In this document: piece by piece, positions 1-61,546 of the stretch | How the letters are laid out: every line of letters begins with the position of its first letter | How positions within the stretch are numbered: position 1 is the stretch's first letter | Made by a program: the position numbers and the translations under genes | Notes under the pieces: generated by a model | Seen by the model: only the letters and a program-made list of their open reading frames with translations | Databases searched by the model: none | Told to the model about the DNA's origin: nothing | Source: Bilabrum cf. latius | Taxonomy: Eukaryota | Length of the DNA stretch: 64,000 nucleotides | Assembly (NCBI GenBank): GCA_965178125.1 | Contig: OZ237736.1 | Location: 186,001 to 250,000, forward strand | Direction of reading: 5' to 3'

Positions 1-2
1 AG

Positions 3-1622
3 CATTCACCGCTCCGATCTAGATCCAACGAGCTTGGCCACTATGGTGGTCGTGCAAGCAGCCCGACAGCCGCTCAGAAGAAGTGGCTCGAAAGCCCGGG
101 TGCCTGTCAGGTGTTGCTGCGGTCGGGCAAGGTCGTTGCAGCACCTGGCGACGGCACTGCGTTCAAGCTGGACCTGATGCTCACGCCCGTGCGACCGCTA
201 GACGGGGAGGAGTGGAGACGTCACTTTGCTGACAGGTACTACCTGTACGGCTATCACGGCGAGCTCACACCGCCCAAGGTGGCACAGTTCAACACGACCG
301 TGTTCGACACGCACCAGGGGCAGGTGCAGAACCCGTACATCAACTACCTCTTCCGAGAGGACACGGTTGGGATCCTCCGCAACTGGACGGACCTGGCGCG
401 GTAGAGCGGCATGATTGCCTCCGAGGTGTACTACACGACCAGGGAGCTCAGCAACCGCGCCTACGAGCAATGGATCCTGTGGGCCATCCAGTCGGCAGGA
501 GGGGACGCGTTCTACGTGGAGACGCCTGAAGACGAGCTGCCCACGGCCAGCAGGGGCAATGCCTGGCTGCAGGAGCACCTGGGCTCGGTGCCCTACACCC
601 CCGCCTGGCAGACCGACCTGCCCTGGATGGACGCCCAGGATGCCGCGCTTCACAACAGCGGGCAGAGCCGCTGGAACAACTTTTACCTGCAAGGGCTCAA
701 CTTTGCCATCGCAAGCCCGCTCGGACCGCGCACGAACGGCGTGTACATCGACGAGACCGCCTTCTCGCGGCTGACCGCGACTAGGATGCGTAGAGCGGAG
801 GAGGCATCGGCCCTGACGCAGCTCGCCGACTCGCAAGGCCTCGCTGCTGAGGAATCCGGACGGCTGCAGCAGCAGGAAGCTCGGCAGATCGTGCGCAACA
901 ATCTGCACTCCTGCAACAAATTCGTCTGCAGGACCGGGGACAGCCAGAGCACCGTCCTGCGCGCGTCTTCTGCGCTCATCTACGCGGCGCACCTGCCTAC
1001 TTTCGACCGGCTCTGGTTCGGCGAGGGCTTCTCCGGGGCGTACAAGACGGGCCAGCCCGACTACTGGCTGGCCGAGATGAGCGGCGTGCCGTTCGGCCTG
1101 ACGGCATCCATGCTGGATATGCCTGCCCAGGCGCTGTACAGGGGCATGGCGGCGGGGCTGGAGGACAACAGGCCTGCCACGTGCGTCTGGCCGGTGTGGG
1201 TGGATCTAGGGCTCGACCAGGGGGGCGCGGATGTGTACGGATGGTGGAACGCGTCGGTCCCTGTGAGTGTGGCGTCAGTGAACGGAGAGGAAGGGCTGGC
1301 GTCGGAGGTGCTGGCGTCCGTCGCAGTGAGACGCGCTGGCTCTGGGTCGGAGATCAGTGCGGAGGACGGGGTGGCTCTAGTGGCGGTGGCCAACTTCGCA
1401 TCGGGTGCCTTGGCCAAGGGAGCGCTGCAGGTGGTGATGCAGATCGATTGGCAGGCCCTGTTTGGCGCATAGGATGTCGGGGTGGCCTCTCAGCCGAACG
1501 TGTGCGGCTTTCAAGGAGCCGAGTAGCTGCCCCTAGGCCCCAACGGGACGCTCTCAATCACCATCGGGCCGCTCGAAAGCAACACCAACGGGAGGCTCAT
1601 CGAGCTGAGGCCGTCGCAGTGA
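3..1622 (+). CDS. DUF6067-type glycoside hydrolase-like protein (5' end outside window)
   Basis: One frame is open from nt 3 to TGA 1620-1622 if three TAGs (402, 1470, ~1524) are read through. Motifs LMLTPVRPLD, NPYINYLF, YYTTRELSNRAYE, WLQEHLG, SGQSRWNNFYLQG and DRLWFGE..EMSGVPFGL match bacterial DUF6067 proteins as I recall them. Confidence 0.75.
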
Positions 1623-1832: not shown

Positions 1833-3416
1833 TCACTAACGCTTACGCTCGCCCAGATGCACTGTGCTCATGTGCGTATTGAGATGGCCGGCCCTCCCAA
1901 AGCGCTTCCCGCACACGCTGCATTCGTGCTTACGCTCGCCCAGATGCACTGTGCTCACGTGCGTCTTGAGACTGCCTGCCTGTCCAAAGCGCTTTCCGCA
2001 CACGCTGCACTCGTGCTTGCGCTCGCCCAGATGCACTGTGCTCATGTGCGTCTTGAGACTGCCTGCCTGTCCAAAGCGCTTCCCGCACACGCTGCACTCG
2101 TGCTTGCGCAAATCCAGATGCACTGTGCTCATGTGCGTATTGAGATGGCCGGCCCTTCCAAAGCGCTTCCCGCACACGCTGCATTCGTGCTTGCGCAAAT
2201 CCAGATGCACTGTGCTCATGTGCGTCTTGAGACTGCCTGCCACACCGAAGCGCTTTCCGCACACGCTGCACTCGTGCTTGCGCAAATCCAGATGCACTGT
2301 GCTCATGTGCGTCTTGAGATGGCATGCCACACCGAAGCGCTTCCCGCACACGCTGCACTCGTGCTTGCGCAAATCCAGATGCACTGTGCTCATGTGCGTA
2401 TTGAGATGGCCTGCCTGTCCAAAGCGCTTCCCGCACACGCTGCACTCGTGCTTGCGCTCGCCCAGATGCACTGTGCTCATGTGCGTCTTGAGATGGCCAG
2501 CCTCACCAAAGCGCTTCCCGCACACGCTGCACTCGTGCTTGCGCTCGCCCAGATGCACTGTGCTCATGTGCGTATTGAGGTGGCCGGCCTCACCGAAGCG
2601 CTTCCCGCACACGCTGCACTCGTGCTTGCGCAAATCCAGATGCACTGTGCTCACGTGCGTCTTGAGATGGCCAGCCTGTTTAAAGCGCTTCCCGCACACG
2701 CTGCATTCGTGCTTGCGCTCGCCCAGATGCACTGTGCTCATGTGCGTATTGAGATGGCCGGCCCTCCCAAAGCGCTTCCCGCACACGCTGCACTCGTGCT
2801 TGCGCTCGCCCAGATGCACTGTGCTCACGTGCGTCTTGAGACTGCCTGCCTGTCCAAAGCGCTTCCCGCACACGCTGCACTCGTGCTTGCGCAAATCCAG
2901 ATGCACTGTGCTCACGTGCGTCTTGAGATGGCCTGCCTGTCCAAAGCGCTTCCCGCACACGCTGCATTCGTGCTTGCGCTCGCCCAGATGCGCCGTGCTC
3001 ATGTGGCCTTCCAAGCTTTTCATAGAGCTTAATTGCTCTCGCCTCCGTCGCTTCGGCTAGGCCTACTGGGCCTAGCCGTTCATAGCAAGTATCGGCTGCC
3101 TGGCAGTATTTCTGCTCGCATTATCTCTGAGGCGCTTCATGCCTATCTTCAAAGATGTATTACCGTTATTATCACCCGACTTATCACCAGCAGTACCCGG
3201 CATCAGGTCAGCTAGGCTGGCCGCGGCAGTTTGAGTCCGAGACAGATTCCTGCTCCTGCCCTGCTGGGCAAACGATCCAGTTGAAATACAGAAATTCAAT
3301 GCTTTGCTGTCTGGATATTGATCTTCGCCAGATGAATCGCTGCCACTGGTTTCGCTAACAAGGTCAACAAGATCAACAATGTCCGAATCGCGGCTGGGAG
3401 CATAATTTAGCGCCAT
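1833..3416 (-). CDS. C2H2 zinc-finger protein, 13 tandem fingers
   Basis: ORFs 3072..3563 and 1836..3023 join in frame across TAGs at 3072, 3063 and 3057. The likely ATG is 3416 (MALNYAPS), with a basic NLS-like PKRRRR before the array. There are 13 CSVC-x12-H-x4-H units. The last TAG (1836) is directly followed by TGA (1833-1835). Confidence 0.85.
1839..2990 (-). repeat. 87-nt coding minisatellite (13 near-identical zinc-finger units)
   Basis: 87-nt periodicity; 29-aa unit HECSVCGKRFGxAGxLxTHxSTVHL(GE/DL)RK. Confidence 0.95.
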
Positions 3417-3607
3417 AACTGAATACAAGCAAATGTCTAGTAGCCTGCAAGTACAAAGTGAATCTAGGAGAGCTGTCACCGGCCAATTATTGTGTAGACT
3501 ATGACTAGATCTGGATCTATGGACCGGCGCCGCGACCGCCTGCGTACAGTGCCGTGCACCCATCGCGTCCGGCTCGTCATTTTGCTGTCGAAGGCATCGT
3601 TTGCGCC

Positions 3608-6600
3608 ATGCGGGCAGCCTATGTAATCTTAATCATTACCAGTTTGCTTTACCAAGTACACGCAAAGCCATCCAACGTTCTGTTTCTCTATGTGGACGAC
3701 ATGCGACCAGATCTTGGCGTTTATAACCGGACCTACATGCACTCCCCCAACTTCGATGCCCTCGCTGCATCCGAGGACGCCGTGGTGTTTGATAACGCCA
3801 ACGTGTAGCAGGCGATTTGCTGTCCCAGTCGAACGAGCACTTTAACTGGGCGAAGACCCGATAGCACCCACGTGTGGAATCTCGTGACGAACTGGCGTCT
3901 GGCCGGCTACGCAAACGCGACCTCGGTGTTTCAATATTTTCTGCAGCAAGGTTTTGCTTTCTCTGGTGGGCAGGGCAAGACGTTTCACCCAGTGGCCGGC
4001 CCAGGGGGCAAGATCGAAGACATTGGCTTCAGCTGGAACCAGCCCTACTTCAGGGCCCCGGGCGAATCCAAGCAGCAGTTTGCCAACTTTTCGCACGCGT
4101 GGTGGAGCATCCCAGCCTCTGAAGCAACCGATGACGAGCTTCCGGACGGATTGATTGCCACAAATGCGGTGGAAATGCTGAAAAACGCCACGTCGCAAAG
4201 CGGAGCGTGGGTGGTGGCGGCTGGGTTCCACCGGCCTCACCTGCCCGAGGTCTGCAGGCAGCCTTACACGGACCTCTACCCCCTCCAGAACACCAAGCTC
4301 GCGAAATGGCCCTACAGGCCTCACGGCTGGGGCGATGCCATTCAGTACGCCTGGGACGCAGAGTCGGGTCCACGGCATATGGGCGATTTTGCCGCCCTCA
4401 ACGTATCGTTCCCCTACGGGTACGTGCCCGAAGATTGGGGCAGGCAGCTGCGCAGGGCGTATCACGCGTGCGTTAGCTTTGCGGACCGGAACGTGGGTGT
4501 GGTGCTGGACGCCCTCAAGTCTTCTGGCCAGTGGGACGATACGACCATCATCGCGATCGGAGACCACGTGAGTTCAGTCGAGCTCAGTCCAAGATGTGAC
4601 TGGGTCGGGAAGGGAGTTATCCCTTCCATCACCCCTTGGATTCACGCGCCTGGTCCTGCCTTGCCGCATTGTGCATACCTGAAGCGTATTCACGCTGGAT
4701 CCTGACCCTACCCTCTGCGACGTGCTGATTCTCCGCCGTCTCATGATGTGGGCTGTTTGCTCGCCTTCCGTTCACCGTGCTGCCTGCCTCTGACCCTTGT
4801 TCCCGTCTGCATCACTCGCAGGGCTGGCAACTGTCCGAGCACGGGGAGTACGGCAAAAAAACCAACTTCCAGGAGGCCGTCATCGCTCCCATGATCCTAA
4901 AGCCAGCCAAAGCAGCCGTAGAGAGGCTGCAGGGGCTGCCCCGTGGCTCTCTCCCTCCTCGGCAGCCTCCCGTTTTCCTCACAGATTTCGCGGAGAGGGG
5001 CTCTGCGTACCGCCTGGAGCTGGGCATCGATTCCATAGACGAGCATGGGCACGTGGTCACGCGAGACCCCGAGGATGCGGAAGCGGAAGCCAAGGTGCAG
5101 GAGGCCCTGCAGCGGGGGGTGGATCTGACCCTCGCCCAGACGGTCCGCTCGGAGGCCTACGTCGAGTTCGTGTCGATCTACCCCACGCTTGCGGAGCTCA
5201 GCGGCATCCCCGTGCCGCCCGTGTGCCCCGACAGCGCGAAAGGAGAGCACGACACGGCGGCCTGCATCGACGGCGTCAGCTTCGCGAGGCTGCTGGCCCA
5301 CCCCGAGGAGCCCTTCATGGACGGCGCCTTCGCGCAGTATCCCACGTGCATGCACGACATCCCGCCGTGGAACGGTTGCGAGAACGAGGGGGATCCCAGG
5401 CACATGGGATACACAGTGCAGACTAGGGGGCCCGCTCCCCAAGGAACAGCAGCAGCGGGAGAACAGGCCGCCCATCCCGCCCAGCGGGAGGCTAGCTTCG
5501 TCCTGCCAGACCGCGCTGTGCCAGTGAATGCGGAGGGCCAGCGGGAGTACCGCTTCACCCAGTGGCTTCCCTTCAACCACTCGAGTGCAGAGGCGGACTG
5601 GGACACGGTGCTAGCCGTTGAGCTGTACGACCACTCCGTGGATCCCACGGAGGACTACAACGTAGCAGCCGAGCCTGCGTACTAGGCAGTGGTGCAAGCG
5701 CTGGCCAAGAAGCTGAGGGCGGGCTGGAGGGCAGCGCTGCCCAGCTACGCCAGGGACAGTGGGGAAGGCAGGAATGGCGCAGAGCATGGTTCGTCCGCGA
5801 TCAAGGAGCAGGGTGCTGGATTTGGAGCGGAGGTGGAGCCTGTTCCCCAATCCACCGGTGGGGTGCAGCCTCCCGTCCCTGGCGACTGGGTGCCCTACGA
5901 GCCCATGTGGGACGAGTTCGACGGGGACTCGCTGAACGAGAGCAAGTGGAATCCTCGCAACGTGGAGTGGGAGGGGCGCCAGCCGGGGTGGTTTGACCCA
6001 GCCAACGTGAAGGTGCAAGGTGGCAACTTGCAGCTGTGGGCCCAGCACGCTCGGCTGAACGCGAGCCTGCGTGCCAAGGGCTACGACAACTTCACGACTG
6101 CGGCAGTGCAGAGCACCACGAGCGTCTCCCACGGGCTCTTCACCGTAAGGTACCGGTCGGGCAGCAGTGCGGTGTCTTCCAGCTGGTGGTTCAGTATGGG
6201 CGGGAGGTAGGACCCCAGCGGGTGGGGGGACGAGATCGACATGTTCGAGTCGTCCGGTACCACCCGCAAGGACTACGACGGGATGCTGGCGACGCACGTG
6301 CACGTGTGGAAGGTGCCCCAGGGCATGTCCAGGGAACAAGTGGAGCAGCAGTGCAACTGCACGTACCCCAAGGAGGCCTCCAGCACCGACCCGTGCTCCA
6401 GTGGGGAGGCGATCTTCGGTGGTGTGCAGCCTCCGAGCGACGCGGCTTGGCACGTCAACACGCTGCTGTGGAATTCGACGGACATCATGGTGTTTGAGGA
6501 CGGGCAGCTGAAGGTGCATCGCACTGGGGCGTGCATGAGCGCGGCGCAGGTCATGAACTTTGATCGCGAGACCATGGGCAACTGGTTCGGATTGCCGGAC

Positions 6601-6672
6601 CCCAGCGTGCTGCCGGACCAGCCGTTCGAGGTCGACTACGTGCGTGCGTGGAAGCCATCGGGTAGTGTGTGA
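3608..6672 (+). CDS. Secreted iduronate-2-sulfatase-like sulfatase fused to a C-terminal GH16 domain (2 exons: 3608-4567, 4822-6672)
   Basis: Signal peptide, NVLFLYVDDMRP, NANV[TAG]QAICCPSRTSTLTGRRPD (CxPxR motif), GFHRPHLP and GDH|GWQLSEHG across the intron. The frame continues through TAG 5683 into WDEFDG..WEGRQPGWF and through TAG 6208 to the EIDMFE motif and FEVDYVRAW. Ends at TGA. Confidence 0.85.
4568..4821 (+). other. Spliceosomal intron (GTGAGT...GCAG), phase 0
   Basis: Removing it restores the conserved sulfatase motif GDHGWQLSEHG. Confidence 0.85.
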
Positions 6673-6946: not shown

Positions 6947-8941
6947 TCAGGCAGACACCTGCACGCCGTGCCCCATCTCGAACGCACGCGCCGTAGCAGT
7001 CACCCCATCCGCCGTCGACATGATCTGCAGCCCGGAGGCAGCACTCCCGAGATGAGACCTGCCCAGCACGGACGCCACTGACCGTTGGTCGTACCCCTCG
7101 AGGAACACCCCGTCCAGCAGCGCCCGGAGCACGTAAGGGCCTCCGAAGCTCGCACCGGTGACCCGGTCTCCTTCCCCACGATCGCTCCCATTCACGCTAT
7201 GGCCCGGCAGGGTCACCATCGATACATAGACCGTCGAGCCTGACACGCCGTCGGCCACCCGCGACGTGTCCACTAGCAGTGACGGCACGACCCCGGGGTT
7301 GTCGGATCCCTTACGGTAGCTCGACACGCAGCAACCGCGGGGCCGGGGCGCGGCCGACTGTCCGGCTCCTTTCATCGCGCAACGTGGAGGGGCGGGGGGG
7401 CTGTCCTGCGGCTTGGCGCGGACAAAGACCCACCCGGTGCATCCCCAGGTGGCGTTCTCGCATGCCGCCTTGCAGGCAGAAATGCCTTCCTTCTCGCTTG
7501 TGCCGGCAGGGAGGTCAAAGTCGCGACCGGGCGCGTCGCCGCCGGGCAAATCCGTGTTATTCATGAAGAAATAAAAGCTTCCATCGGGGTTCGAACCCCG
7601 GCCCGCCAGGAACACGCCCACGAACGCGAAGGACGAGTCGTCATCCCAGCTCCTGCCCTGGGCGCCCTACCCAGCGAGCAGCCCCACGCCCGCCGTGTAT
7701 CCGCGCCCGCTAGCTGACAGGGCATCCGATATGTAAATCGTCGCCTCCACGTCGAGGTGGGCACCGGCAGTGGCGTTGAGAATGACGGGACCTACCGGCC
7801 CGACCGTCGCGTTGGTTGCAGATCCCGCGCTCCCTCGCCGCAGCTCGCGGAGCTCCTCAATGGGCTGCACCTTAAGGTATTCCGATTCCGGGTCGAAGGT
7901 CACCTGGCGGGGCACGGACTGTGCCCCATCCCAGAACACCCCGTCGCTGTTGAATCCAGGGGTGGGCAGCCACGACCACATGAGGCGGCGCTTGGATCGG
8001 TCGTCCCAGAAGCTCTTGGAGGCCTTGCCGATGCCGTAGTCGTACCTGGGTACGTTGGCATAGGTCGGTGGCCTGTCCGGCTGGAACGTGATCTCCTCCG
8101 GGTCCAGCGTGCCGAGCCAGTACTCGTCCCCACCGCACAGCGTCTCGAAGGCGCGCTGCTGCGGCTCCATCCCGGGCAACTGGTACATCTCGGGGCATGA
8201 CACGAACTCGCAGTAGCCCGTCATGTTCCAGAGCGCGTGCTCCGAGCGCCACTCGGTGAAGTTCTCGTCCGAAGAGTAGAGCCAGACCAGCCCGGTGCCA
8301 TCGTCGGGATCGAGGTACTTGCCTCCAACGAACATCCACCACCGGCCGTCGCCTTGCACCTGGAACGCCTCCGAATCGTCGTGCAGCCGAGGGTAGGCGA
8401 ACGCCGGTGGTTCCTTCACGATCACTCTAGAGGTCCAGTTCGTCAAGTTTGGGTCGCTGCGATTGGAAGGGACGGCCATGCACTGTGTCATGTCGATGCC
8501 CCCGGGCACGCTTGCGTTCGCGTGCACGCCAGGGTAGAGAATCCTCGGCTCGCCACCTACGATTGTGGTGCTGCCCGAGAAACAGCCATGCGTATTTGGA
8601 CAACCAGCTCCATCGGGCAGAAGAGCTGATTGCGGCAGGACCACCCAATTGGCGAGGTCTTTCGAGAGAGCATGGGCCCACTGTTGCGGATGCTTGTTAC
8701 AGGCAGAGAATCCAAAGGCTCCGGCGGAGCTCGGGCAGTACTGCATAAACAAATGGTACGATCCGTGCTACTTGTCAAAGAAGGGGCCGTTCGGGTCGTT
8801 CACGTGCCCAGCTCGCGGTCGAACATGAAATATGGGTTGCCGAACGCTTAGCTCCGCGGTGCGTGTCCCGCGTGAATTCTGCGCCGAGGCAACGATCGCA
8901 ACTACTAAAATAGCGAGCTGAAAATTGGCGAAATGGCTCAT
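6947..8941 (-). CDS. Secreted GH32 (beta-fructofuranosidase family) protein with a PAN/Apple-like insert
   Basis: ATG 8941 with a signal peptide. Motifs FHVRPRAGHVNDPNGPFFDK[TAG]HGSYHLFMQY, WAHALSKDLANW, GCFSGS, YDYG..ASKSF, RRLMWSW, SVPR and LKVQPIEELRELR. Second TAG at 7667. Cys-rich TDLPGGD..ACKAAC..CTGWVFV..RCAMK segment at about 7320-7560. Ends at TGA 6947. Confidence 0.85.
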
Positions 8942-9066
8942 GCTACCCGATGCTGTTCGTGACTTTCTTGTTCAAGTTGATCCACAATGACAGTGGTTCT
9001 CGTTCTCATTGCATTCGTTTTGAACAATGTATGGCTGTCTAGCAGGATACCATCCAGTGCATAATA

Positions 9067-12000
9067 ATGAATAATTCGAAAGCTTCATTGGTCTTCACGG
9101 GCGTCGTAGCATTGATTTGGGGCTGGACTGCGAGTATTCGAATCCATGCTGCTGAGATCCATGGTCATGTGTTCTCCCGAGCGCAGCACCCGTACCATCT
9201 GGTTAATCCTATAGCTATATGTTTAAAGCGGGTCTCAGATTCTCACAGCGGGCTAAATTGCACACCAGGATCAGTGGCATTTGCCCATGCAAGGGCCACC
9301 CATGGCAGGAATGCTGACCAGCTTGAGTAGACGTGCGGTGTAGCAAACAGCTAGACATATATTGATGACTTAGGCGACTGTCTGCATCTGGCATCGGAGC
9401 CATGGTTGCAAGATAGTTCGACCAGACTGCGATACCTTGCGACCGACATATGGGCAAAGAACGGATTACTGTTCGCCATAGTGCCCCAAACGCTGGATTT
9501 TCCAATTCGGACAGAATTGATATCGATGCTCACACTAGCAGAATCCCGCAACGACGGCCTGCTCTTCAACCTAGGATCCCCTGCAATCATCCGAGGCTCC
9601 ACCAGTGCTGCGCAGATGCTGCTGGCTTGGAGGCTGCCGCCGTGGATCCTGCCCGATCAAACCATAGCTGTGCAGGTAGTGTACCATACCTACAGAAAGA
9701 ACGTGGTCCTCTGGCACCTGGACGATCGCCCCGAAGCCCCCTTCGGATACAACAGGAACGCCCGCGTGCCCAGCGATCCCATGTGGGCGGGCCGAGCCTC
9801 ACCGCATGGACTAGGGGCAGAGGGCCCGGCACCAACATATTCCACCAATGCAACGCCGATCCGTGGCACTCCCAGCGTGCTAGCATCCCTCATTGCGCTG
9901 CCGCTGGACACCCGGGCATACCTCCCTCAGTGGGCCGCGCATCACGCCAGGCTGGGCATCTCCGCGACTTTGCTGCACCGCAACGATCCGGAGGAGCAGG
10001 CCATCTGCCTCCACAACGAGATGGTGTGGAGGAGCGTGTTGCTGATTGAATGGATCGCGAAGTATTCGCAGGCGATCTCGTCGAGTGACGGCACCAGGCT
10101 CCCGCCGATGCCTCCCGGGACCAACCACACTGCGGCGGCGCAAGCCTGGCTGGCAGCCGCACAGGCGGGTCTATCCCCTGCGCGCAGGACCAGCGAAGCA
10201 CTGTGGGCGAGTCTTGGGCCGGGTCCAAAGAGCCGAGGGTGCTTGCCCTCCTACAGAGTCACGACTATCCGGCCCCAAACTGGAGGCCCGGATGCGGGCG
10301 AGTCACCACAGCCCATGCCGGTGGCCGAAGTGTCGTGGCCGTTCCGATTCTACCACTCCAAGGGCGGAATTGCAACTCAGCAGGGCGAACGGGGGTGGCA
10401 AAAGTTCTATTTCGAGGCTCAGCCCGCTGCCATGACGCACGCCCTGGTCAAGTACGCCAAGGGGATCGGGGGTGGCAGTGGGTTCGACTGGCAGCTGGTC
10501 CTCGATATCGACGAGTACCTGATCTTGCCTGGCTGGGGATTGCCCTTTTCCTTGCGTGGCGCTGCACTGGGCGGGCGAGAGATCACTTCGGCTATCCAGG
10601 AACTAGCAATGGCAGCTGATGCGCAAGCACAGAGAGACGGATACACGGATGCAGGTGCAGTCGTGTTCGAGCGAAGGAATGCCGTCGCCTCCGTGTCCTA
10701 TCGAGGCAAGTCGCTGACCAATGCCACGGCCTGCACCCCGCTCTGGCTGCTCCCTCGCAGCCTGTTCCTGCCCTCGTGTTAGAGTCGCGTGGTGGGACAC
10801 ATGCACAGCCACGACCGGGCAAAGGTCTCCACCGCGTCATCTGCATCGATACCCAAGCACTGCGCGGGCTGGACTGCGCACGGCGAGTCGAAAGACGGGG
10901 ACAAGGTGAGTGGGTCAACCCTCTGCAGTGCAGTGCTCCCAGACGGGTCCAGTGCACAGCCTCACGGCAGCATCGAAAGCGTCCCTGCCTCTGGGCAGTT
11001 CGAGGCTGCTGGCAAGCATAGGTTGGCTCTGTTGGATGCTCACCCCATGCTCCTGGAAGCACCGCGCGTCATACCAGAGGCTGGCACCCCGCGGGGAGGC
11101 AACGTCAAGAGCATGGTGCGGGTCAGGCACGCGGTGGCTTCCGAGATACACATTCACGTGCATGCCCCCTTGTCTCCTGCAGAGCTTGCGCGCGTCAAGC
11201 TCCATCGGTTGCCTTCTGCTGTTGAACAGCCCAGTAGAAGAACAAGCAGATCAGTGTAGCCAGATGCGCTGGAGGCCTCGCTGTCGCCTGTTGCTGCTTC
11301 TCACATGCCCGCCAACTGCATTCGATCTGCTGGTAGTCAGCAAGCTCCCACCGAGTGCGTGGCCTTTGCCCCCTTGTACGATGTGGAGGCACTGGTTGGT
11401 ACCGTGGTATAGTCAGACCATGGCGATAGCACCGCATTCAACGGGACAGTCGTTGGCAATATTGGGCTCAGTCGATCGGGGACTGGATCAACAAGCACGC
11501 CGATTCGTGGGCGAACACCAACGGTCGTGCACCTGGTGGAAATGTCCTGTCGCCCTGGCCCCGCCCCTCACGGCATGGCATTGCCTGCCGAAGAGGGCGG
11601 TGTCCTGCGTGGGAATGGGGCCTCGAGCCAGGAACAGGAGCATGGGAATGGGGCCTCGAGCCAGGAACAGGAGCATGGGAATGGGGCCTCGAGCCAGGAA
11701 CAGGAGCGTGGGAATGGGGCCTCGAGCCAGGAACAGGAGCATGGGAATGGGGCCTCGAGCCAGGAACAGGAGCATGGGAATGGGGCCTCGAGCCAGGAAC
11801 AGGAGCATGGGAATGGGGCCTCGAGCCAGGAACAGGAGCATGGGAATGGGGCCTCGAGCCAGGAACAGGAGCATGGGAATGGGGCCTCGAGCCAGGAACA
11901 GGAGCATGGGAATGGGGCCTCGAGCCAGGAACAGGAGCATGGGAATGGGGCCTCGAGCCAGGAACAGGAGCATGGGAATGGGGCCTCGAGCCAGGAACAG

Positions 12001-12597
12001 GAGCATGGGAATGGGGCCTCGAGCCAGGAACAGGAGCATGGGAATGGGGCCTCGAGCCAGGAACAGGAGCATGGGAATGGGGCCTCGAGCCAGGAACAGG
12101 AGCATGGGAATGGGGCCTCGAGCCAGGAACAGGAGCATGGGAATGGGGCCTCGAGCCAGGAACAGGAGCATGGGAATGGGGCCTCGAGCCAGGAACAGGA
12201 GCATGGGAATGGGGCCTCGAGCCAGGAACAGGAGCATGGGAATGGGGCCTCGAGCCAGGAACAGGAGCATGGGAATGGGGCCTCGAGCCAGGAACAGGAG
12301 CATGGGAATGGGGCCTCGAGCCAGGAACAGGAGCATGGTCGGGAGCAGGAGCAGGCAGGTGCGGATGGGACGGGGGCGCGTTGGGATTGGGCCCTGCATG
12401 GGGAGTACGATGCGTGCGCCCCCCGCTTGATGCTTGAAGCTGCAGCAGAATAGAGGCGGTTGACTGCCGCTGACGGCGTGGAGCAGTTGGGTGCGGCAGG
12501 TGCTGGCGTTGTCGGGTCCTTCGGACCAACTACCCTGCGTGCCTCCAGTGCGATTGCCGGACTTGAGGTGTTGCAAGATGAAAACGTTACATACTGA
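9067..12597 (+). CDS. Putative glycosyltransferase (GT92/DUF23-like, DxD motif) with N-terminal signal/anchor and an 11-aa repeat tract
   Basis: ORFs 9067, 9406, 10789 and 11527 share one frame and are joined by six TAGs (9328, 9352, 10780, 11257, 11410, 12451). Ends at TGA 12595. Motifs YLPQWAAHHARLGI and FDWQLVLDIDEYLI. Confidence 0.6.
11611..12336 (+). repeat. 33-nt tandem repeat x22 encoding (GNGASSQEQEH)n
   Basis: 726 nt = 22 x GGGAATGGGGCCTCGAGCCAGGAACAGGAGCAT; one unit carries CAT>CGT. Confidence 0.95.
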
Positions 12598-12925
12598 CTG
12601 ACGATTCGAAGACTCCGAGGTTGCACCCTACTGGACAAGCCCACGCCCGATGATCCGATCCCGCTCATCGTCATATCTCTTTGCGACCAAACATATCCCG
12701 TAGTTTCCTCACGACGTATTTGAATTCACTTGAAATATAGCTAATCATTGTCGATACACAGTATTTGGCAGGTAGGCGAGTTTCGTATCGTTTGGTCATC
12801 GCGTTGCGTACCAATGCGTAAATGCTTCTCCGTAGCTGCAACTTGAGCGCCATTTGACTCAGTTACAGCGATACACGGTCAGTGCTGGAGCCATCAAGGA
12901 AGTTGGTTTGGATTAAATTGTTGCC

Positions 12926-17125: not shown

Positions 17126-17239
17126 CAAGGGATTCCCGACTTGCTTGAATAAGCATCAATCACCCGTAGTGCGTAAGTCTACGATTCGAAATATAGCTCT
17201 TGATGGCTGACCTTTCATCACAAAGAACTAGCGATGCAC

Positions 17240-18522: not shown

Positions 18523-18669
18523 AGCACAAGCTAAGCCAGGATTGCGTGAAGTTCGTTCCAGTTCCGTTGATACGCGAACCCCACGTTACATTTAAAATCG
18601 AGGAAAATGTGATTTTTGGAGCACGTCTTCTCGGGCTGCAAACTTTGATTGTCCGGTCATCTTGGCAGT

Positions 18670-24937: not shown

Positions 24938-25378
24938 ACTAGCAGACGAAGTGTCGGCGATTTGTGAACCGGGAATCTGAGCCCACGGCGCCAGACCAGA
25001 AAAGAACAGTAAAGGTTGGGCAGATCTCGTGGGCGAGGATCTGAATGATTGTAGCTGGGCACTCAAGACAACGGCAAAATACACGAATACACGTATGGAC
25101 TTCTGCAGAAATCTGACACTAATCGGCCAGCCGTAGAAGGCAGAGCTGCACTGCGTGCGGAAAGGGGCGCCCCACCCAAATGGACGGAACCGCAACTAAT
25201 GCCCCTTGCGCGGCGCCAAATCTGGTTTAAATTTTACGTCGCAAAGGTTTACAATCCCGGCCTCATTCGACAAGCACAGACCCTGCCCCACGACCCCCTT
25301 GGTCTCTCCCCCCACCGCGCCACACCTGGGACCCATGACATGCACAAGATCGCCGTTGGTCGACTGCCGCCATCCCAC

Positions 25379-48773: not shown

Positions 48774-49197
48774 CACGGCTGTGCTCGAAGGTGACGGCGG
48801 TAGAGCAGTTGTTCCTTGTAACAAAGATGCACAGTGTTGATGAGGACCTGGGACGCTTCTTTGGTGCTCTAGTGGAATGAAGCTCAAGCACGCGGAGTTG
48901 AAAAGGAGAACAAATATTTACCACGGCGAGCCGAAGGCAGGCCCAACACTGTGGGCCAACAGACCAGAGCTCCTAACTAGCCCCTCGTAAGCTTCAGTGC
49001 TCTGTCAAACAGAAGGTTAAGCAACCTAGGACATCATTCTACACCTGAGTGACCTCAAAACTTAGCCACGGTTCGAACGGTGCTGGAGCGGGGCACGTGC
49101 GTGCAGTTGCAGTGATCTATACCTATTTCCGTACGCAACAAAGCTGCTGCGTCGACGATTCGCATCAAGCCCCATTTTGCTGCCCAAACGAACGAGA

Positions 49198-52224: not shown

Positions 52225-53427
52225 TTAGATTTCCGCGCCGGCCTCCTCCAGCAGCTTCACGCACTCCTCATGGGCCCCCGCCTTTGCTGCCGCCAGCGGA
52301 GTCACCATCGTGCCGCCCAGCTCGCCCTCGATCTCCAGCCCGCCCGCCAGCTTGCCCAGCCTCAGCCTCCTGGCCAGCTCCAGAGGCCTGCCATCCCTTG
52401 CGCTCTCGAAAATGTACCCTGCGTCCCTCACGGTGTCCGTGGTCCTGCGCCACCTCAGCAGGGCATTCCTACGTTGTTCCCTGGGATCCCAGCCGAGCAC
52501 GTGGTGCCTTGCCTGGTCCTCCCTGGGACAACGACCGAAGAACTAGCGTACTGCGATGGTGGCGCGATCTTTGCCGCGAGTTTTGGTCGTGCAAGCGGCT
52601 TCCAGGGCGTGCATGAGTGATAGCAACGCCTAGTCTTCGGTCCTGCACCGGAGAGGAGCCGTTCTCCTGGGGCCTCCGTGGTCCTTGATTGGGATGCCTC
52701 CGTATAGCTCTCTCTGCAGCTGCCTCCAGGCGTTCAGGTGGTGGTCCCGGACCGTCTTCTTGCGGTGCAGGTGCGGGTTTGCTCCGTGCATGAGCAGGTA
52801 CAAGCAGGCTGTGACGTTCTTCTGCTCGCACACCGCGATGAGCGCTGTCCAGCCGTTGCTATCCTGCGCGTCGACATCGGCGCCGGTTAGAACGAGCTGC
52901 TTCACTGTGCCCATGTGCTTGTGCTTAGCAGCCACGATGAGCGGGGTCTAGCCTTTCTGAGAAATGAGTAAACAGTGATATATTTGGGAAGCATAATGCA
53001 ATTGCTTGGCGTCCCTGCGGCTCGCAAGATCTGCAGTACTAGTTGCTTACCGAGTCCCTCAGTTCAAGGTTTGCACCAGCTTCAGCGATAGCTTTGGTGC
53101 ATTTCTACCATCCATAACGAGCAGCATAGTGCAGTACTGTCCACTTTGTCTCAACGTGATGCTTGCCCTGCGTAGGTCGACCAGACTAGGCAACGGAACG
53201 GGTCACACGATCCTTTCTCCAAAGACTGCAAACCCATTACATAGCCTGTGATATCCGTTCCAGGGTAAAAGTTAGACGGTATTTCTCACTGGATCTGGGT
53301 CTGGGTAGTTCAAATGCCTAATCAGCGTCGAGTGATACTTGCCTTCCCTCGGAGTTGTCAGAAGGTGCATGATATCTTTCGCCTTCCGGGCACGGGCAAG
53401 CTCTACAAATTCTTGTGCCTTATGCAT
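52225..53427 (-). CDS. Ankyrin-repeat protein (predicted exons 53427-53290, 53167-53051, 52956-52225)
   Basis: WTVLHYAARYGW[TAG]KCTKAIAEAGANLELRDS|KG[TAG]TPLIVAAK..GADVDAQDSNGWTAL..TPLAAAKAGAHEECVKLLEEAGAEI followed by TAA. Two phase-0 GT-AG introns (53168-53289, 52957-53050). The first exon is the least certain part. Confidence 0.7.
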
Positions 53428-53628: not shown

Positions 53629-54783
53629 TCAGTCCGCTGGAGCTGCCACTGAGCTCGCATCTTGGCCGGCCATGCCGACCACCCCTGACTCGCTCGAAGC
53701 AGCCGGCGCCGCTGGTCCACCTGCGTCAGCTGCGCGCGGGGCAGTGTCGCTCGCGTCATTCTGTGCAGAATCGGTGACTTCTACCCTCCTGCGCTTCCGC
53801 CCGGCCCCGAATGCCTTGCCGCCGTCAGCACGAGGCACCGCATGCGAAGCATCCGCCGGGGTACCCTCTTCGGCTGCCGTGCGGCCTGCATCGCCCGCTG
53901 CAGCGTCCCTTGCAGCCTGCACGTGCTTCTTCAGGGCTTCTTTGCACTCCGCGAGGTGCCTCCGCAGGCGGGCAGCCTCGTCCTGCCACTGTCGTTTCTG
54001 GACCTCGGCTGCTTCCGCACGGGCTGCCGCGGCTGCTGCCTGGGCGCCCGCGCGCTCCGCTGCTTCTTTCCATTCTAAAACCACCTGTGCGCGCTCCCTG
54101 CGATCAGCTTCTTCTGATTGCGTGCCGCTATTTGCTGCGAAAGACCCGAGGTGCAGAGCGAGGGCGGCCTCGCAGCGAGTTGCTCGCTCTGCGTTGGATT
54201 CCAGAACCGCTGCAGTACGGGACTAAATGGTAGCAGCAGCCGCAAGGGCTGCAGTAGATCGTTGTTGTGCCTCAGCTGCTCGTCCTGCATCACTGCTCAG
54301 TAGCTTGAATTGCTGCACTGCTGCCTGCCCGGCGCTGAGCATCCCTTGAACGAGCTGTTCGAGCTGCTCCACGGCAGGGCGAATCGAAGCAGCCTTGTCT
54401 ACACCTCCAGCAGAACAAATAGACTTTGCACAGAGCATGAATGGCTCAACTCTAGGTAGATCAGCTAGCTCAAAACTGCCTCCCGTTGCTTTTGACGAGT
54501 TGCTCTCGTTCGTCCTGCTGGCGCTGGCTGCTCCTGGATCCGCATCTATTTCAGAGTCTTCAAATTCTATCTACATCATTGATGCATCTCTTACTGCGTT
54601 TAGCTCTTTCTACCTCTGAAGGCTGAGCTGAACAGTTTGCAGGCTTGCTTGCTCGGTCTTGTGCGAGCAGCCTACCTTTCTCAAGCAGCTGCTCGGGTCT
54701 GCACTTCCGTTGTGCGTGTAGAGACCCTGGGTACTTGAAATGCACCCTTCAAGTATTTCGAGTGCAACATCCCACTCACCCAT
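53629..54783 (-). CDS. Hypothetical coiled-coil protein
   Basis: ORFs 54610..54921, 54223..54438 and 53629..54084 share a frame joined by TAGs (54610, ~54571, 54223) and end at TGA. A/E/R-rich helical segment and basic RKRRR. Start codon uncertain. Confidence 0.55.
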
Positions 54784-55729
54784 GGGAATTCGGTAGAATT
54801 GTGTCTGCACTGAGTAGAGCTTGCGACCGAGCGAGCACTTCCGGCTTTGTCTAGGGCAATTGCTCCATGCATTAATTGAGGAATGTAGCACGAATAACGT
54901 TCTCACAACATACCAACACACTTCAATATATCTTCGTATATGTTTGCAAGTAGAAGGCCCCGTTCTTACTATTTTTCAGTATGGCGAGGTCGTGACGCGA
55001 CGCATATCTGCAAGTCTTGCAAACCCCGACACCGTGACCCCAGGCAGGGCCAGCCAAGGCTATCCTACACGTCTATCCATTAAATTTTCGCAACAAGGCA
55101 AGGATTTGTGTGTCCTTTTACCTCTCCGAAGGATATTTGGACCATAGTTCACAGTCGGAGGTCACTACTGCGTCGAACGGGCGGAGACCACCAATGAAGT
55201 ATCAGCCAGGCAGAGACTCTAATCGAGGTCTAGATTCATACGCCCGGAAAATGTCTGGCTGATATACCCTTGCTCATTGTCTCGGCAGTGCCATTTGCCT
55301 GGACGGGCTGTGCATCAGCTTGCCCTGCCCAGGCCCGACTGGCAGTCCCATCCGCTTCCAACGACACTGCCAGTGGCTGCGGTGCCTCCGCTTCGACAAG
55401 ATAGCCGCGACATGAATGGTAAATTCAGGTTGTAGCGGGGACGAAGGGGCTATACTTTGCACCCAAGTACACGGTGCAGCCCTATTTTAAGCAGCATTTA
55501 TCTGTTCCGCGAGTGTTGGACGTTGCACTATTGCACCAGGTTACCAGGTCTTGGTACACGACTGGCGACTCGTGGACATGGGTCTCAACCAGAACATAGT
55601 TCTGTAAAGCCAGGCTGAGTGGATTGATATCAAAGTTCTCGCCTGGTGGCCCAAGCGGGAGCCGCAAGGCCGTGAGTAGCGCACCTAGCTCTGTGGATTG
55701 GTGCCGAATTGTGACGATGAGCGTGGTGC

Positions 55730-56296: not shown

Positions 56297-59200
56297 TCAA
56301 GCGTCTGCCTGCTCGCGAGATTTATCCGGAGATGCCTCGCTCCCTGGGACCTGGCTTTTGGCCGGTTCGTCCTCGTGGGCAGCTCGAGCAAAGCCAGGAG
56401 CTGTGCCTGGCTTGCTCGAGCCACGCACCGGCTTGCCATGAGGCCACATGGGAGATTGTCCCTACAGATCTCCCCTGCCGATGAACCTGTTACCCTCGAT
56501 AGTAGAACGATCTCCCGACTCGGTGCTGCACTTGCCTTTGCTGGCAGTCTCGGGTCTTGATGACGGGCCAGCAGCTTCTCGGCGATGCTCCGCAGCCTCC
56601 TCCTCAGTGTCCACCAGTCCGGTTCGTCCACAAAGCCACTCCATCTTCGGACCAAAGACTCTTTCAAACACAGCGAATGCAGCTTTGAACCCGCCAAGGA
56701 TACCCACTGTGAGACCCAAGATGGACGAGGCCACTTGAGCCAAGGTGTAGGCTGGCGTGATGCTGGTCGTAGCAAACACTCCCGCTCGCGACACCCGGAT
56801 GCTGAGCCTCGTCACCGTGCTGGCAGGATCGATGGCATCGACAGATCGAGTCGACGTCGCCCCGCTGCGCAGGTCTTGTACTCGGAAGCCCTCCACGCTC
56901 CTGGAGCTTCCAGTCCTCGTGTCGTCCAGCACATGACCGACCAACGCCATCTGCTCGGATCTAGCATCCAGCATCTCTTGCAGGTGCATGGTGGCGTTCG
57001 AGGTGAGTGGATCAGCTGATGGAGACACTGCAGTGCCGCTCACACTGGACCAGCGGCCTCCCGCGTCTTGCGTTGCCAGGCGCCAGCTGATCGCCTGCAC
57101 GGCCCAGTGAGTGTCGAGGTCAAGCGAGGTGACTGCACTTAGGCCGCAGTCGTCACACGTGGCTCGAAGCCAGCACAGGGGTCGATCGAGCTGCTGGTTA
57201 CCAATGGACAGCTCCTGCACGGTGGCTGTAGCTGCCAGTTGCAGCATCGAATGCGCCGGTGCGTCTCCTGCCAGTGGTGCGGAAGACAACGATGCGCGAC
57301 CAGAGCTCACGGTAAGCAGGTACGACTCATTGCAGGCTGCCAGGGAGGTCGGAGACAGCACGGCATCCAGCGCCATGTTGCTCATTGCAGATGCGGCTCT
57401 GCCGGCACCGGAGGCCCCTGCCGTGGCCACCTGCAGCCCATCCGTGGTGATGGAGTTGCGATAGGCGAAATCGAGCACTAGGGTAGTGGACGATGTCAGT
57501 GCCACCAGCACGGCCATGACGGTGAACCACCCACCCATTGCCGTGGCGATCCTCCTGACAGCGGCATACTCGACGGGCTTGTGCTCCTGCGCCATGCTGT
57601 CGATCATTCGGAGTCCCGAGTGCATCGTTGGTCGTGCAGACGGCACCAGCAGCAGAAGCAGTAGCACGCAGAGCACGCATGTAGACATGATCCATGCGAT
57701 AATAACAATGCCAGATGCATCATCATTGCTGGTATCACCATCGCTTGCCCCATCTTCAGGCTCACCATTCGAGTCGCCTTGTCCTGGCTCTTGCAGACGC
57801 CGTGCAGCCACGCTATCCCCCCTCAGTCCTGCCATCACTTTGGGGTCAACCACCACCTCTGGATCCATCTGCAGCCGTCTACTGGACCCACTGGTGCTGT
57901 AGCTGCCAGTCGAAGCACTCGCGAAGGCACCCTTGGCAGCTCCAGGCAGGGGGATATCTGCCATGGATTCCTGGAGCACAGCCACAGCAGGCACAGGCTC
58001 GGGGACACCGGGCAGGCACATCGTGCCAGGCTCGCTGCATTCTGTCGGTAAATCAACGCACTCGTTGTTGCTTGAATCCAGAAGGCTACCCCCTGGGCAT
58101 CCAGAGCACGATGCCGAGCCACTATCGCTGCTCAGGCCTGCACCGCACTTGATGCAGCTGGACGTGAGGGCAGCACCAGCATATGGCATGTAGGTGGCTG
58201 GCGGACACTTCGAGCATGCAAATGATCCGTACATGGAGCTGGATACAGTGCCTGGCTCACAAGCCACACATGACTGTACGTTACCGCCGGGTGAAGATGT
58301 ACCTGGCAGGCATGGCTCGCAGGTCAAACCCGCCATCCCGACAGGGCACGACGTAACCACAGCAATGCAGTCGGAGGCGCTAGATGTGCCAGTCCCAACT
58401 GTTGTGGTCCCTTCAGGGCACTAGACGCAGTCTGACGAAGCAGTTGCCTGTCGTACCTCGCTGTAGGTGCCTTTGGGACACTCTTGGGCTCTCACACCAT
58501 CCTCGCAGTAGGCCCCTGCAGGGCACTCCACGCACAGAATCCTCGAAGCAAGTGAGTTTCCAAGCACGTCAACTTTGGATCGAAAGGTGCCAGCGTTGCA
58601 TGTGATCCCTACAGTATCAGACACATTCACGGATGAAAGCGCAAAGAGGTTGGCGAATGCCTCGGCGTGCGACGTACTGATTGGGTTGTTTCTGAAGTCT
58701 ATCGCCTCCATTGCATCATTCGCAGTGAAGGACAGCTGGGGCAGGTACTCGATCCCGTTGTCACTCAAATCTATCGTAATCGCGCTGATTAGGGGCGAGA
58801 GCGCGCCATTTAGTAGAGTAAATGACCGGTCGCCAGAGGACCCCTCGACCCTCAGATTGGTCAGTCCAGTTAGGCCAGCAAATGTTGTCTCTGTCCATAC
58901 AGACCGGCGCAGATCCAGACCTTGCAGATCCAGAGTACGAAGACTGCCTGCAAATGCGCAGTCTCGAAATCCATTCATGGCCAGGTCCTGGGTTTTGCCA
59001 AATACACGCTGTGCGCCAGGCGCCTGGATGGACAGGGAAGCGAGGGAATCGAGACCGTCGAAGAATCCACACGTGCCGTTCTCAACAGTAAAATCAGCTC
59101 CAAGAGTCAGAGCTATATCAGTCAGATCTTCAAGGTGTACTAGTAGCCCAGTTGGCCCGGCTTCCAGCATTGGGGTGTCAAGTTCAAGACGGCGAGGACT

Positions 59201-61546
59201 GCCGTGAGCGCCCGAAAAGGCGTCCGTATGCAAATGCCGCAGTCCAGGTGCCTCGATGCTCAGTTGCAAGGATGACACTGAGCCTTCGAAAAGCCTCTCT
59301 ACTGCTTCCTGCATGCTCGATGGCAGCGAGATGGACGTCAGGCCCGTCAGCCCTCGCAGCGCGCCTGCATCCAGACTCGACACCTGCGTCATGGACAGGT
59401 CCAGCGACTACAGGCCGGATGGGCCCGATCCATCCTCGGCCGATGTGAACGCGTCTGGCTCGATGGTGCTGATGGTCGACGGCAGCGAGATGGACATCAG
59501 GCCCGTCAGCCCTCGCAGCGCGCCTGCATCCAGACTCGACACCTGCGTCATGGACAGGTCCAGCGACTACAGGCCGGATGGGCCCGATCCATCCTCGGCC
59601 GATGTGAACGCGTCTGGCTCGATGGTGCTGATGGTCGACGGCAGCGAGATGGACGTCAGGCCCGTCAGCCCTCGCAGCACGCCTGCATCCAGACTCGACA
59701 CCTGCGTCATGGACAGGTCCAGCGACTGCAGGCCGGATGGGCCCGATCCATCCTCGGCCGATGTGAACGCGTCTGGCTCGATGGTGCTGATGGTCGACGG
59801 CAGCGAGATGGACGTCAGGCCCGTCAGCCCTCGCAGCACGCCTGCATCCAGACTCGACACCTGCGTCATGGACAGGTCCAGCGACTGCAGGCTGGATGGG
59901 CCCGATCCATCCTCGGCCGATGTGAACGCGTCTGGCTCGATGGTGCTGATGGTCGACGGCAGCGAGATGGACGTCAGGCCCGTCAGCCCTCGCAGCGCGC
60001 CTGCATCCAGACTCGACACCTGCGTCATGGACAGGTCCAGCGACTACAGGCCGGATGGGCCCGATCCATCCTCGGCCGATGTGAACGCGTCTGGCTCGAT
60101 GGTACTGAGACCCTACGGCAGCGTGATGGACGTCAGGCCCGTCAGCCCGCGCAGCACGCCTGCATCCAGACTCGACACCTGCGTCATGGACAGGTCCAGC
60201 GACTGCAGGCCGGATGGGCCCGATCCATCCTCGGCCGATGTGAACGCGTCTGGCTCGATGGCAGCAGTTTTATCGGGTAGTTGTACCTGTATCAGCGTTC
60301 CATTGTCAGTTCCCAAGCTGTGCCGTGGGATGACGGTCAGATTGGAACACCTTGACAGGTCTATCGCCAGCAGTCGTGGTGCTCCAAGAGCAAAGTTCTC
60401 TGGCAGCTCGTTGAGATCGGCTGGCAGCACAAGACTCTCCAATGACGTCCAACCAGCGAGAATTGGCTTAATCCGGCCTATTGGCCATTGGGATAGGATT
60501 GAGGTGGCAGATAGATCTAGCAGTGTTGCAGATCTGTCAGCAGATACGGCAGTGAAGTTCACGACCGGAGGAATGCATTCGATGGGTACTGACCATGCCT
60601 GCACGCTCGATGGCGGGCTGGACATAGAATCGGAGTCGGCCCCGAAGCAGTGCATCTAGTGTGTGCCTGCCTCGATCCCACACGTGTGGTACCCACCTGC
60701 AGACACGGCGGACCATGCCTTCACACTTGATGGCGGGGTGGTCCGGGAGTTCTAGTTGCTGGACCCGAAGCAGTGCATCTTGTCAGTACCTGCCTCGATC
60801 CCACACGTGTGATACTCCCCCGCAGAGACAGCAGACCATGCCTGCACACTCGTTGGTGGCGTGGCCCTGGAATCAGAGTTGGACCCGAAGCAGTGCATCT
60901 TGCCAGTGCCAGCCTCGATGCCACACGTGTGAGCTACACCAACAGCCACAGCGGACCATGCCTGTACACTCGATGGCGGGCTGGACATAGAATTCGAGTT
61001 GGACCCGAAGCAGTGCATCTTCCCAGTACCTGCCTCGATCCCGCACGTGTGTAACATACCAGCAGACACGGCGGACCATGCCTGCACGCTCGATGGCGGG
61101 GTGGCCCTGGAATCAGAGTTGGACCCGAAGCAGTGCATCTTGCCAGTACCAGCCTCGATGCCGCAGGCGTGACTCCAGCCCGCAGACACGGCTGACCATG
61201 CCTGCACGCTCGACGGTGCCTGTGGGGTGATCTGGGAATTCACCTCTAGCCCGAAGCAGTGCATCTAGCGAGTGCCTGCCTCAATCCCACACGTGTAGCC
61301 ATCCCCCACAGAGACAGCGGACCATGCCTGCACATTCGATGGTAAGTTAGACTGATACATTTTGTCAAAACAGTGCATTTTGCGAGTGCCTGCCTCAATT
61401 CCGCAGGTGTGGGAGATACCAGCCATTTCGAGCGACATGCGATTGCTGTACTCTAAGCACCAGTTTTCGCCCTTTGATCGCCCAAGCATCAAAATGGTCG
61501 CAACAACAATAAGTGATCTTATTAGTTTCGGCATTGCGACAGGCAT
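56297..61546 (-). CDS. Large cell-surface membrane protein: signal peptide, 7 RCC1/CR4-like repeats, LRRs, Cys-rich (TNFR/GCC2-GCC3-like) repeats, ~3 TM helices (1749 aa)
   Basis: Six listed ORFs share one frame, joined by nine TAGs, and end at TGA 56297. Repeats WSAVSAGxxHTCGIEAGTGKMHCFG, LQSLDLSMTQVSSLDAGxLRGLTGLTSISLP and CxxCPxGT; hydrophobic segments GIVIIAWI..LLLLLV, WFTVMAVLVAL and VASSILGLTVGILGGF. Confidence 0.8.
59310..60262 (-). repeat. 159-nt coding tandem repeat x6 (53-aa double-LRR unit)
   Basis: 159-nt periodicity of GACAGGTCCAGCGACT. Confidence 0.95.
60580..61420 (-). repeat. ~120-nt coding repeat x7 (RCC1/CR4-like blades)
   Basis: The MHCF motif recurs seven times at ~40-aa spacing. 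Confidence 0.9.

Follow-up and report, generated by a model that had tools for sequence, protein, structure and literature searches.

UAG as a probable glutamine codon in the nuclear genes of a GC-rich flagellate

Can a eukaryote give UAG to glutamine while UAA and UGA go on ending its genes? This question is raised by a stretch of 64,000 nucleotides from contig OZ237736.1 (positions 186,001 to 250,000), hereafter called the window, in which gene after gene is interrupted by TAG. UAA and UAG in eukaryotes almost always change meaning jointly, and a decoupled case is rare. The window belongs to the nuclear genome of an intron-poor, GC-rich flagellate (57-67% GC in the window) that, as its RIB43A gene shows, builds an axoneme. 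We find it very probable that in this organism nuclear UAG specifies glutamine, with UGA as the main terminator and UAA as a second, rarer one, as in NCBI table 15. TAG is interchangeable with CAG and CAA in repeats, paralogues and orthologues, and a diverged relative shows the same apparent use of TAG. TAG = Gln, with TAA and TGA as stops, had been put forward in a preliminary description of the window, and repeats, orthologue likelihoods, terminators and spliced contigs all support it.

Open reading frames (ORFs) were listed from stop to stop under each possible stop set, the TAG-open set being bounded by TAA and TGA only. With TAG as sense, eight ORFs reach at least 1,000 amino acids (aa) in length (1815, 1815, 1786, 1712, 1403, 1283, 1269 and 1003). 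None does so under the standard code or when TAA is freed, the longest measuring 945 aa in both cases, and freeing TGA yields a single one (1088). The summed length of ORFs of at least 500 aa is non-discriminating (24,122 aa when TGA is freed, 23,557 aa when TAG is), since all frames grow longer once the commonest stop triplet is removed (TGA 1,576, TAG 826 and TAA, the rarest, 303 on both strands of the window), and this sum was dropped as a test statistic in favor of the longest ORFs and of domain continuity. When the TAG-open ORFs were scanned with Pfam, domains were found to span TAGs, and the Fn3-like domain of the GH3 gene is finished downstream of a TAG.

The 16 ORF segments backed by a Pfam match or by coding evidence comprise 14,464 codons, among which are 87 in-frame TAGs and no in-frame TAA or TGA, in agreement with the earlier statement that 16 genes are interrupted by TAG only, some 85 to 90 times. 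All but five of the 87 (82) are located after the first ATG of their own ORF, and two additional TAGs lie in RIB43A exon 1. There are about 6 TAGs to every 1,000 codons, and as many as 17 in a single gene; CAG occurs 532 times and CAA 141 times in the same codons, such that TAG makes up about 11% of the putative Gln codons. The genes are as follows, with GC3 denoting GC content at third codon positions.

3..1622, plus strand: GH123-like glycoside hydrolase (Pfam PF19543, 1.4e-67), 5' end outside the window; 3 TAG, TGA end
1833..3632, minus strand: C2H2 zinc-finger array of 13 units of 29 aa (Pfam zf-C2H2, 3e-65); 4 TAG, TGA end
3419..6672, plus strand: sulfatase resembling iduronate-2-sulfatase and carrying a GH16-like part at its C-terminus (Pfam PF00884, weak GH16 match); two predicted exons
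6947..8971, minus strand: GH32 fructosidase-like protein with PAN domain (Pfam PF00251, 6.6e-40); 2 TAG, TGA end
8749..12597, plus strand: long, weakly GT2-like ORF containing a tandem peptide repeat; 8 TAG, 7 of them beyond the first ATG; TGA end
12917..17125, plus strand: cyclin-domain protein (Pfam Cyclin), mostly low-complexity; 13 TAG, TGA end
17240..18522, minus strand: RIB43A, axonemal ribbon protein (Pfam PF05914, 1.1e-26); exon 1 18297-18522, intron 18196-18296, exon 2 17240-18195; TAG at 18089-18091 and two in exon 1; TGA end at the usual family C-terminus
18654..19837, plus strand: prohibitin (Pfam Band_7); exon 1 ending at 18765, intron 18766-19063, exon 2 19064-19837; TAG at 19241 and 19319, TGA end
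20243..25378, minus strand: CLU-like and TPR_12 repeat protein A (Pfam); 17 TAG, TGA end
29148..34592, minus strand: CLU-like and TPR_12 repeat protein B (Pfam); 9 TAG, TGA end
39002-44446: CLU-like and TPR_12 repeat protein C, an identical copy of B (1814/1814)
45111..48917, minus strand: WD40 protein, intact copy (Pfam WD40); 1 TAG, in the WD repeat CSTD[TAG]TVVLW; TGA end
49021..52029, plus strand: GH3 beta-glucosidase/xylosidase-like protein (Pfam GH3 N, C and Fn3-like); 7 TAG, 5 after the signal-peptide Met; TGA end
52225..53046, minus strand: ankyrin-repeat protein (Pfam Ank_2); 3 TAG (2 after the first ATG); TAA end, unique among the window genes
53629..54975, minus strand: coiled-coil-like ORF rich in Ala and Glu, lacking any family match and of the weakest coding status among the 16 segments (GC3 0.53); 3 TAG, TGA end
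56297..61654, minus strand: RCC1-like, BspA-type LRR and ephrin-receptor-like membrane protein (Pfam); 10 TAG, TGA end

Contigs of four public runs (X1, X2, X3 and X8) were aligned on window positions 12400-20240 only. Those of X1, X2 and X8 skip the GT..AG introns of prohibitin and RIB43A, and the X3 contig is unspliced through both; judged from the splice joints alone, X1, X2 and X8 would be RNA-like. The spliced contigs carry no other letter at the two prohibitin TAGs or at the RIB43A TAG at 18089, nor do the X1 contigs (records 1 and 4) at any of the 13 TAG places of the cyclin gene. The TAGs are therefore present alike in DNA and in spliced transcripts, which argues against editing and mini-introns; these had been named as possible refutations of TAG = Gln, and the public contigs leave that assignment standing. 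The claim that the reading frame never shifts does not hold, in view of the two introns skipped in the spliced contigs. A third one is predicted in the sulfatase gene, where a GT..AG intron of 254 nt (4568-4821) would interrupt the motif GDH/GWQLSEHG between exons in different frames.

The relative, L001, is part of a 16.4-kb metagenome contig found by a prohibitin scan of metagenome contigs, and its prohibitin is 90% identical to that of the window (88% by tblastn). The two loci have in common the order of a cyclin-like C-terminus, RIB43A on the minus strand and prohibitin on the plus strand, with a WD40 orthologue downstream of prohibitin in L001, and the L001 genes have in-frame TAGs of their own at differing positions. 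Substitutions at codon positions 1, 2 and 3 between window and L001 run at 0.115, 0.047 and 0.435 in prohibitin, 0.195, 0.160 and 0.572 in RIB43A exon 2, and 0.301, 0.213 and 0.637 in WD40. This pattern shows strong purifying selection on all three genes over a long divergence, with synonymous sites close to saturation. As a rough control, 80 metagenome prohibitin loci were compared, 18 of which have some stop triplet inside the tblastn match. Outside L001 these triplets are mostly opposite gaps and were taken as introns; in L008 and L011 they lie near the C-terminus, and L047, L068, L069, L075 and L076 are short or low-identity matches that often mix TGA, TAA and TAG.

Could the TAGs simply be untranslated, as pseudogene lesions (for example, C-to-T changes resembling repeat-induced point mutation), sequencing or assembly errors, or sites of editing or tiny introns? 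Many of the TAG-rich genes are indeed duplicated (TPR proteins A, B and C), and CAG becomes TAG by one transition. Nevertheless, the same letters recur in contigs from four runs and three studies, spliced ones included, with no difference at the TAGs covered; TAG is also present in conserved genes that are single-copy; and damage of the C-to-T kind should also have produced in-frame TAA and TGA, of which there are none. Based upon the spliced contigs, the differing TAG positions of L001 in the same genes and the purifying selection acting on them, we rejected such damage, editing and pseudogenes, and regard untranslated TAGs as hardly credible.

The residue at TAG

If TAG is a sense codon, comparison with the relative should reveal its meaning. 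In alignments of prohibitin, both RIB43A exons and WD40 between window and L001, TAG stands in just one of the two species at 15 sites, and the partner is Gln at nine of them (CAG or CAA), Lys at four, Arg at one and Glu at one; the CAG of the L001 WD40 orthologue, for instance, stands opposite the window TAG in the WD repeat. A pair matrix drawn from the same alignments gives 0.69 for Gln opposite Gln and 0.03 for Lys opposite Gln. Under this empirical matrix, the log-likelihood for the orthologues is -24.5 with Gln and -38.3 with Lys, a gap of 13.8 ln units, which widens to 42.6 (-75.7 and -118.3) when the paralogue pair described below is added. One L001 TAG falls on a RIB43A column that is Gln in all five solved homologues and in the window, and the exon-2 TAG has Gln as its counterpart in P0244, a RIB43A from Logan with 80% identity.

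In these alignments one further TAG is common to both species, at window positions 19319-19321, equivalent to codon 86 of the L001 prohibitin. The prohibitin of Cafeteria, predicted at full length (282 aa), has Tyr at this shared column. It is likely that the shared TAG arose by the path GAY to TAY to TAG, an old change from Tyr to Gln that preceded the split of window and L001.

Repeats inside the window point to the same residue. Column 5 of the 42-residue TPR unit holds CAG or CAA 17 times, TAG nine times and nothing else, with TAG 6 and CAG 5 in protein A and TAG 3 and CAG/CAA 12 in protein B; column 28 of the 53-residue LRR unit in the RCC1/LRR protein holds three CAG and three TAG. In the remaining repeat columns TAG is paired with TCG (Ser), with AAG or AAA (Lys) or with variable residues, one RCC1 column having Lys five times and TAG once. 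Proteins A and B are 75% identical, and their 25 TAG columns comprise 10 with Gln, 11 with another residue (V, G, A, P, K, L, W, E, R, E and Y), one with TAG in both and three gaps. A second aligner places Gln opposite TAG at 11 of 21 aligned sites, as compared with 10 of 21 for the first.

Several TAGs had been described as falling on conserved Gln sites, and this proved correct, in position and mostly in residue, for two of the three examples given. Among GH3 homologues, the column of TLEEKIN[TAG] (TAG at 49378) is occupied by Gln in 42 of the 50 aligned with MAFFT and in 29 of the 43 aligned with phmmer. The sulfatase TAG at 3806 lies two residues ahead of the C-x-P-S-R active-site motif, in a column that is Gln in two of three distinct solved proteins, namely human IDS (5fql/6ioz) and the arylsulfatase 6hhm, and Ser in the choline sulfatase 6fny. 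The third example, LE[TAG]QI in exon 1 of RIB43A, is mistaken, as its column reads S, A, L, N and Y in five solved homologues and the conserved Gln is the residue following the TAG. Elsewhere, prohibitin column 63 has N 44, S 33, T 20 and Q 19 among 120 homologues, GH3 column 733 has S 30, D 23 and Y 22, and the GH123 TAG columns are variable among 150 homologues. A search of PDB with the GH123 piece gave no match, and the PDB alignments of GH32 and RIB43A place TAGs in variable or gapped columns that are uninformative. In a column-profile score over 32 sites, Gln nevertheless ranks first with +18.3, the next residue scoring -6.3, and the 12 external sites alone give +5.1 and -0.9. By these measures taken together, UAG columns correspond to glutamine, though many distant columns are variable.

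The alternative that TAG stands for Lys, Glu or Tyr, each one mutation away, draws on Lys being the second commonest orthologue partner, on the RCC1 column with its five Lys, and on the Tyr of Cafeteria-like prohibitins at column 89. It is, however, set against the log-likelihood gaps given above for Lys, a combined deficit of 64.8 ln units for Glu, and the absence of Tyr from the six best residues, as well as repeat columns of invariant Gln that alternate with TAG only and the Gln of the GH3 and sulfatase columns. We consider it extremely improbable.

Termination and decoding

Which triplets still end genes? TGA does so in 15 of the 16 segments and TAA in one, the ankyrin gene, and none ends at TAG; the TGA ends of prohibitin and RIB43A coincide with the C-termini of their homologues. 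From the ratio of CAA to CAG (141:532), about 23 in-frame TAA would be expected in the 14,464 codons if TAA were read in the same way as TAG. Where a TAA forms the upstream limit of an ORF, GC3 on its far side is in most cases 0.43-0.53, as in non-coding DNA. Moreover, the prohibitin of L001 reads SIGRR and then TAA where that of the window reads SVGRR and then TGA, at the same position of the conserved C-terminus, and this end is the best single piece of evidence that TAA would act as a stop. UGA terminates genes in this sample, and UAA is absent as a sense codon and, on a sample of two gene ends, terminates as well.

These figures bear on the possibility that UAA and UAG both encode Gln (table 6), UAA being rare through GC richness and UGA the sole true stop. 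The two codons usually change jointly, according to the available portion of one source (PMC5304391), a TAA end is seen in only one of 16 window genes, and TAA is the rarest of the three triplets in the window. Set against this are the missing in-frame TAA, the GC3 values beyond the ORF-bounding TAA and the TAA end of the L001 prohibitin, and we judge a joint change to be quite improbable.

UAG might instead be both sense and stop by context, for which UAA in Blastocrithidia and all stops in Condylostoma offer parallels, or it might be read through efficiently by a near-cognate tRNA-Gln(CUG) in place of a dedicated tRNA(CUA). Near-cognate readthrough by tRNA-Gln is described in the accessible part of PMC13192750, and the sample of gene ends is only 16. 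Yet none of these ends is a TAG; six TAGs per 1,000 codons and up to 17 per gene would demand nearly complete readthrough at each site; and the domains of prohibitin, RIB43A and GH3 extend beyond TAG to the usual ends of their families. An explanation of this kind is therefore unlikely in our estimation.

Several observations weigh against UAG = Gln with UAA and UGA as stops. Most TAG columns are variable or favor a residue other than Gln when compared with distant homologues: prohibitin column 89 has D 96 and Y 8 among 120 homologues, and the Tyr of the Cafeteria-like group there is one mutation from TAG; GH123 column 134 has A 41 and Q 7 among 138; and GH3 column 601 has V 50 and L 20. Repeat units and paralogues are non-independent observations. 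The lack of in-frame TAA is partly a consequence of how the ORFs were delimited, and two genes only, the window ankyrin gene and the L001 prohibitin, support TAA termination. The run types are software guesses, and no matching run is on record as RNA. Finally, a tRNA scan of the window and L001 returned zero tRNA genes.

If UAG is nevertheless read as Gln, as we find very probable, the decoder, by analogy with other UAG = Gln or UAR = Gln lineages, might be a tRNA-Gln that descends from tRNA-Gln(CUG) and bears the anticodon CUA. Release factor eRF1, of which no gene is encoded within the window, would have lost or weakened its recognition of UAG while still recognizing UAA and UGA. Most terminations in so GC-rich a genome may already have been carried by UGA, and UAG may hence have been open to capture.

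Placement of the organism and comparison with known codes

Where does this organism belong? The nearest named prohibitin is that of Cafeteria roenbergensis, at 71% identity. In a maximum-likelihood tree of 68 prohibitin rows, only a handful of them named, the window and L001 group together with support of 100/99, and this pair joins P0004 and a seven-row Cafeteria clade with support of 97/91. The organism is probably a bicosoecid-related stramenopile near Cafeteria, which, coming from a single gene, is a lead and not a placement. The preliminary description had proposed a prohibitin phylogeny and had called the organism unlike a ciliate. The grouping beside the Cafeteria clade agrees with the latter, and as a placement the tree extends to one gene and few named rows. 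The protein database returned no prohibitin or GH3 of this organism that was both full-length and near-identical, a prohibitin scan of genome contigs returned three distant prokaryotic SPFH proteins only (29-33% identity) and no contig from the window's lineage, and an Rfam scan of the window gave zero matches and thus no rRNA, 18S included.

In the available portions of McGowan et al. 2024 (PMC11687900), UAG alone is given as Gln in Iotanema spirale, in Protocruzia tuzeti and in two phyllopharyngean ciliate lineages, as Leu in an uncultured rhizarian and as Ser in Scotinosphaera, and both UAR codons as Gln (table 6) in many ciliates, hexamitin diplomonads, Ulvophyceae, Streblomastix and Amoeboaphelidium. 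A close likeness is to Iotanema (Fornicata), a non-ciliate flagellate in which UAG alone has passed to Gln and UAA and UGA are still stops. In Iotanema, however, UAA is the primary terminator, as stated in the accessible part of Panek et al. 2017 (PMC5304391), whereas TGA ends 15 of 16 genes here; Iotanema is a metamonad, whereas the prohibitin tree suggests a stramenopile; and the present evidence draws on genomic DNA as well as on a second, diverged species.

The UAG-only ciliates share the codon, the amino acid and the decoupling of UAA from UAG, as far as the portions of their source show. The window, however, has no ciliate affinity, its prohibitin grouping with the Cafeteria clade; it has long genes and GT..AG introns, and its 57-67% GC differs from the AT richness typical of ciliate macronuclear genomes. 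With the UAR = Gln codes there is a common feature in the capture of a stop by Gln, presumably through a mutated tRNA-Gln anticodon and a change in eRF1, but in those codes UAA is Gln too, whereas in the window TAA is absent from 14,464 codons and ends genes.

Cafeteria roenbergensis/burkhardae (Bicosoecida), the nearest named prohibitin clade, is a heterotrophic stramenopile flagellate and is GC-rich like this organism. Its genome is compact (34-36 Mbp, about 70% GC), and a non-standard code is mentioned in the available part of the source for the mitochondrion only (10.1101/751586). No report of a nuclear stop or UAG reassignment in a stramenopile or bicosoecid was found in the full-text literature searched, which was largely without subscription journals and had no supplements.

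The code of the window most likely adds a new, independent case to the known type in which UAG alone is Gln, and the position of its prohibitin beside the Cafeteria clade makes an independent origin likely. That it represents the first altered nuclear code in a stramenopile lineage, a fairly old and independent UAG = Gln origin in a GC-rich bicosoecid-like clade of at least two to three species (the sources of the window, L001 and P0244), is a proposition for which we see the chances as evenly balanced. If true, this would be a further independent UAG-only case, with UGA rather than UAA as the main terminator, and such a UGA-dominated case bears on whether GC pressure and stop usage steer the choice of the captured stop. 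There is also a practical consequence, in that gene callers using the standard code truncate the proteins of this organism, and a table 1 annotation of any genome, metagenome-assembled genome or transcriptome from the clade would be badly fragmented.

Since several public runs contain its DNA and spliced-transcript data, the organism may exist in culture, and it would then be a tractable non-ciliate model for separated recognition of UAG and UAA by eRF1. Runs matching window positions 17200-25400 come from ten studies and bear several coded organism labels. More than half of the sampled words are found in runs under three labels and three studies, a fourth label reaching 0.27, and small shares also occur in protist, algae and marine metagenomes. 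With the same DNA appearing in runs of several organism labels, the flagellate may have been overlooked in other cultures, where it would be a co-cultured or contaminating species.

Duplications and other features of the window

The window has a tandem duplication (27201-36800 and 37055-46654) with a period of 9,854 bp, near-identical over about 9.6 kb, in which 31 mismatches lie almost all at the two edges. This duplication could be very recent or an assembly artefact. Each copy contains a TPR gene (B or C), a partial prohibitin (28173-28739 in one, 38027-38593 in the other) and parts of the WD40 gene, whose upstream copies appear frame-broken. At the duplication boundaries, within the glycine tract of WD40, are (CCA)n microsatellites (27221-27358 and 37048-37212) whose minus strand reads as poly-Gly or poly-Trp; the intact WD40 copy (45111-48917) has only seven Gly in that tract. 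A convergent WD40 gene directly follows prohibitin in L001 (3001-6762), whereas in the window (18654-28739) a TPR gene lies in between and the prohibitin/WD40 junction is kept only in the duplicated fragments, which suggests that TPR genes were inserted or amplified in the window lineage.

Carbohydrate-active enzymes, apparently secreted, are clustered at window positions 1-8971 (GH123, sulfatase with GH16-like part, GH32 with PAN) and 49021-52029 (GH3), and the closest named GH3 match is to the choanoflagellate Didymoeca costata, with 48% identity over about half of the query. This cluster may point to an osmotrophic or polysaccharide-degrading way of life, and perhaps to gene transfer. The tandem peptide repeat of the GT2-like ORF (11709-12338) consists of about 24 copies of the 11-residue GNGASSQEQEH, and the opposite strand is open there too. 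Near the end of the window (61758-62606), a weak RVT_1 fragment without in-frame TAG, adjoining ORFs of doubtful coding status, is probably the remnant of a retroelement.

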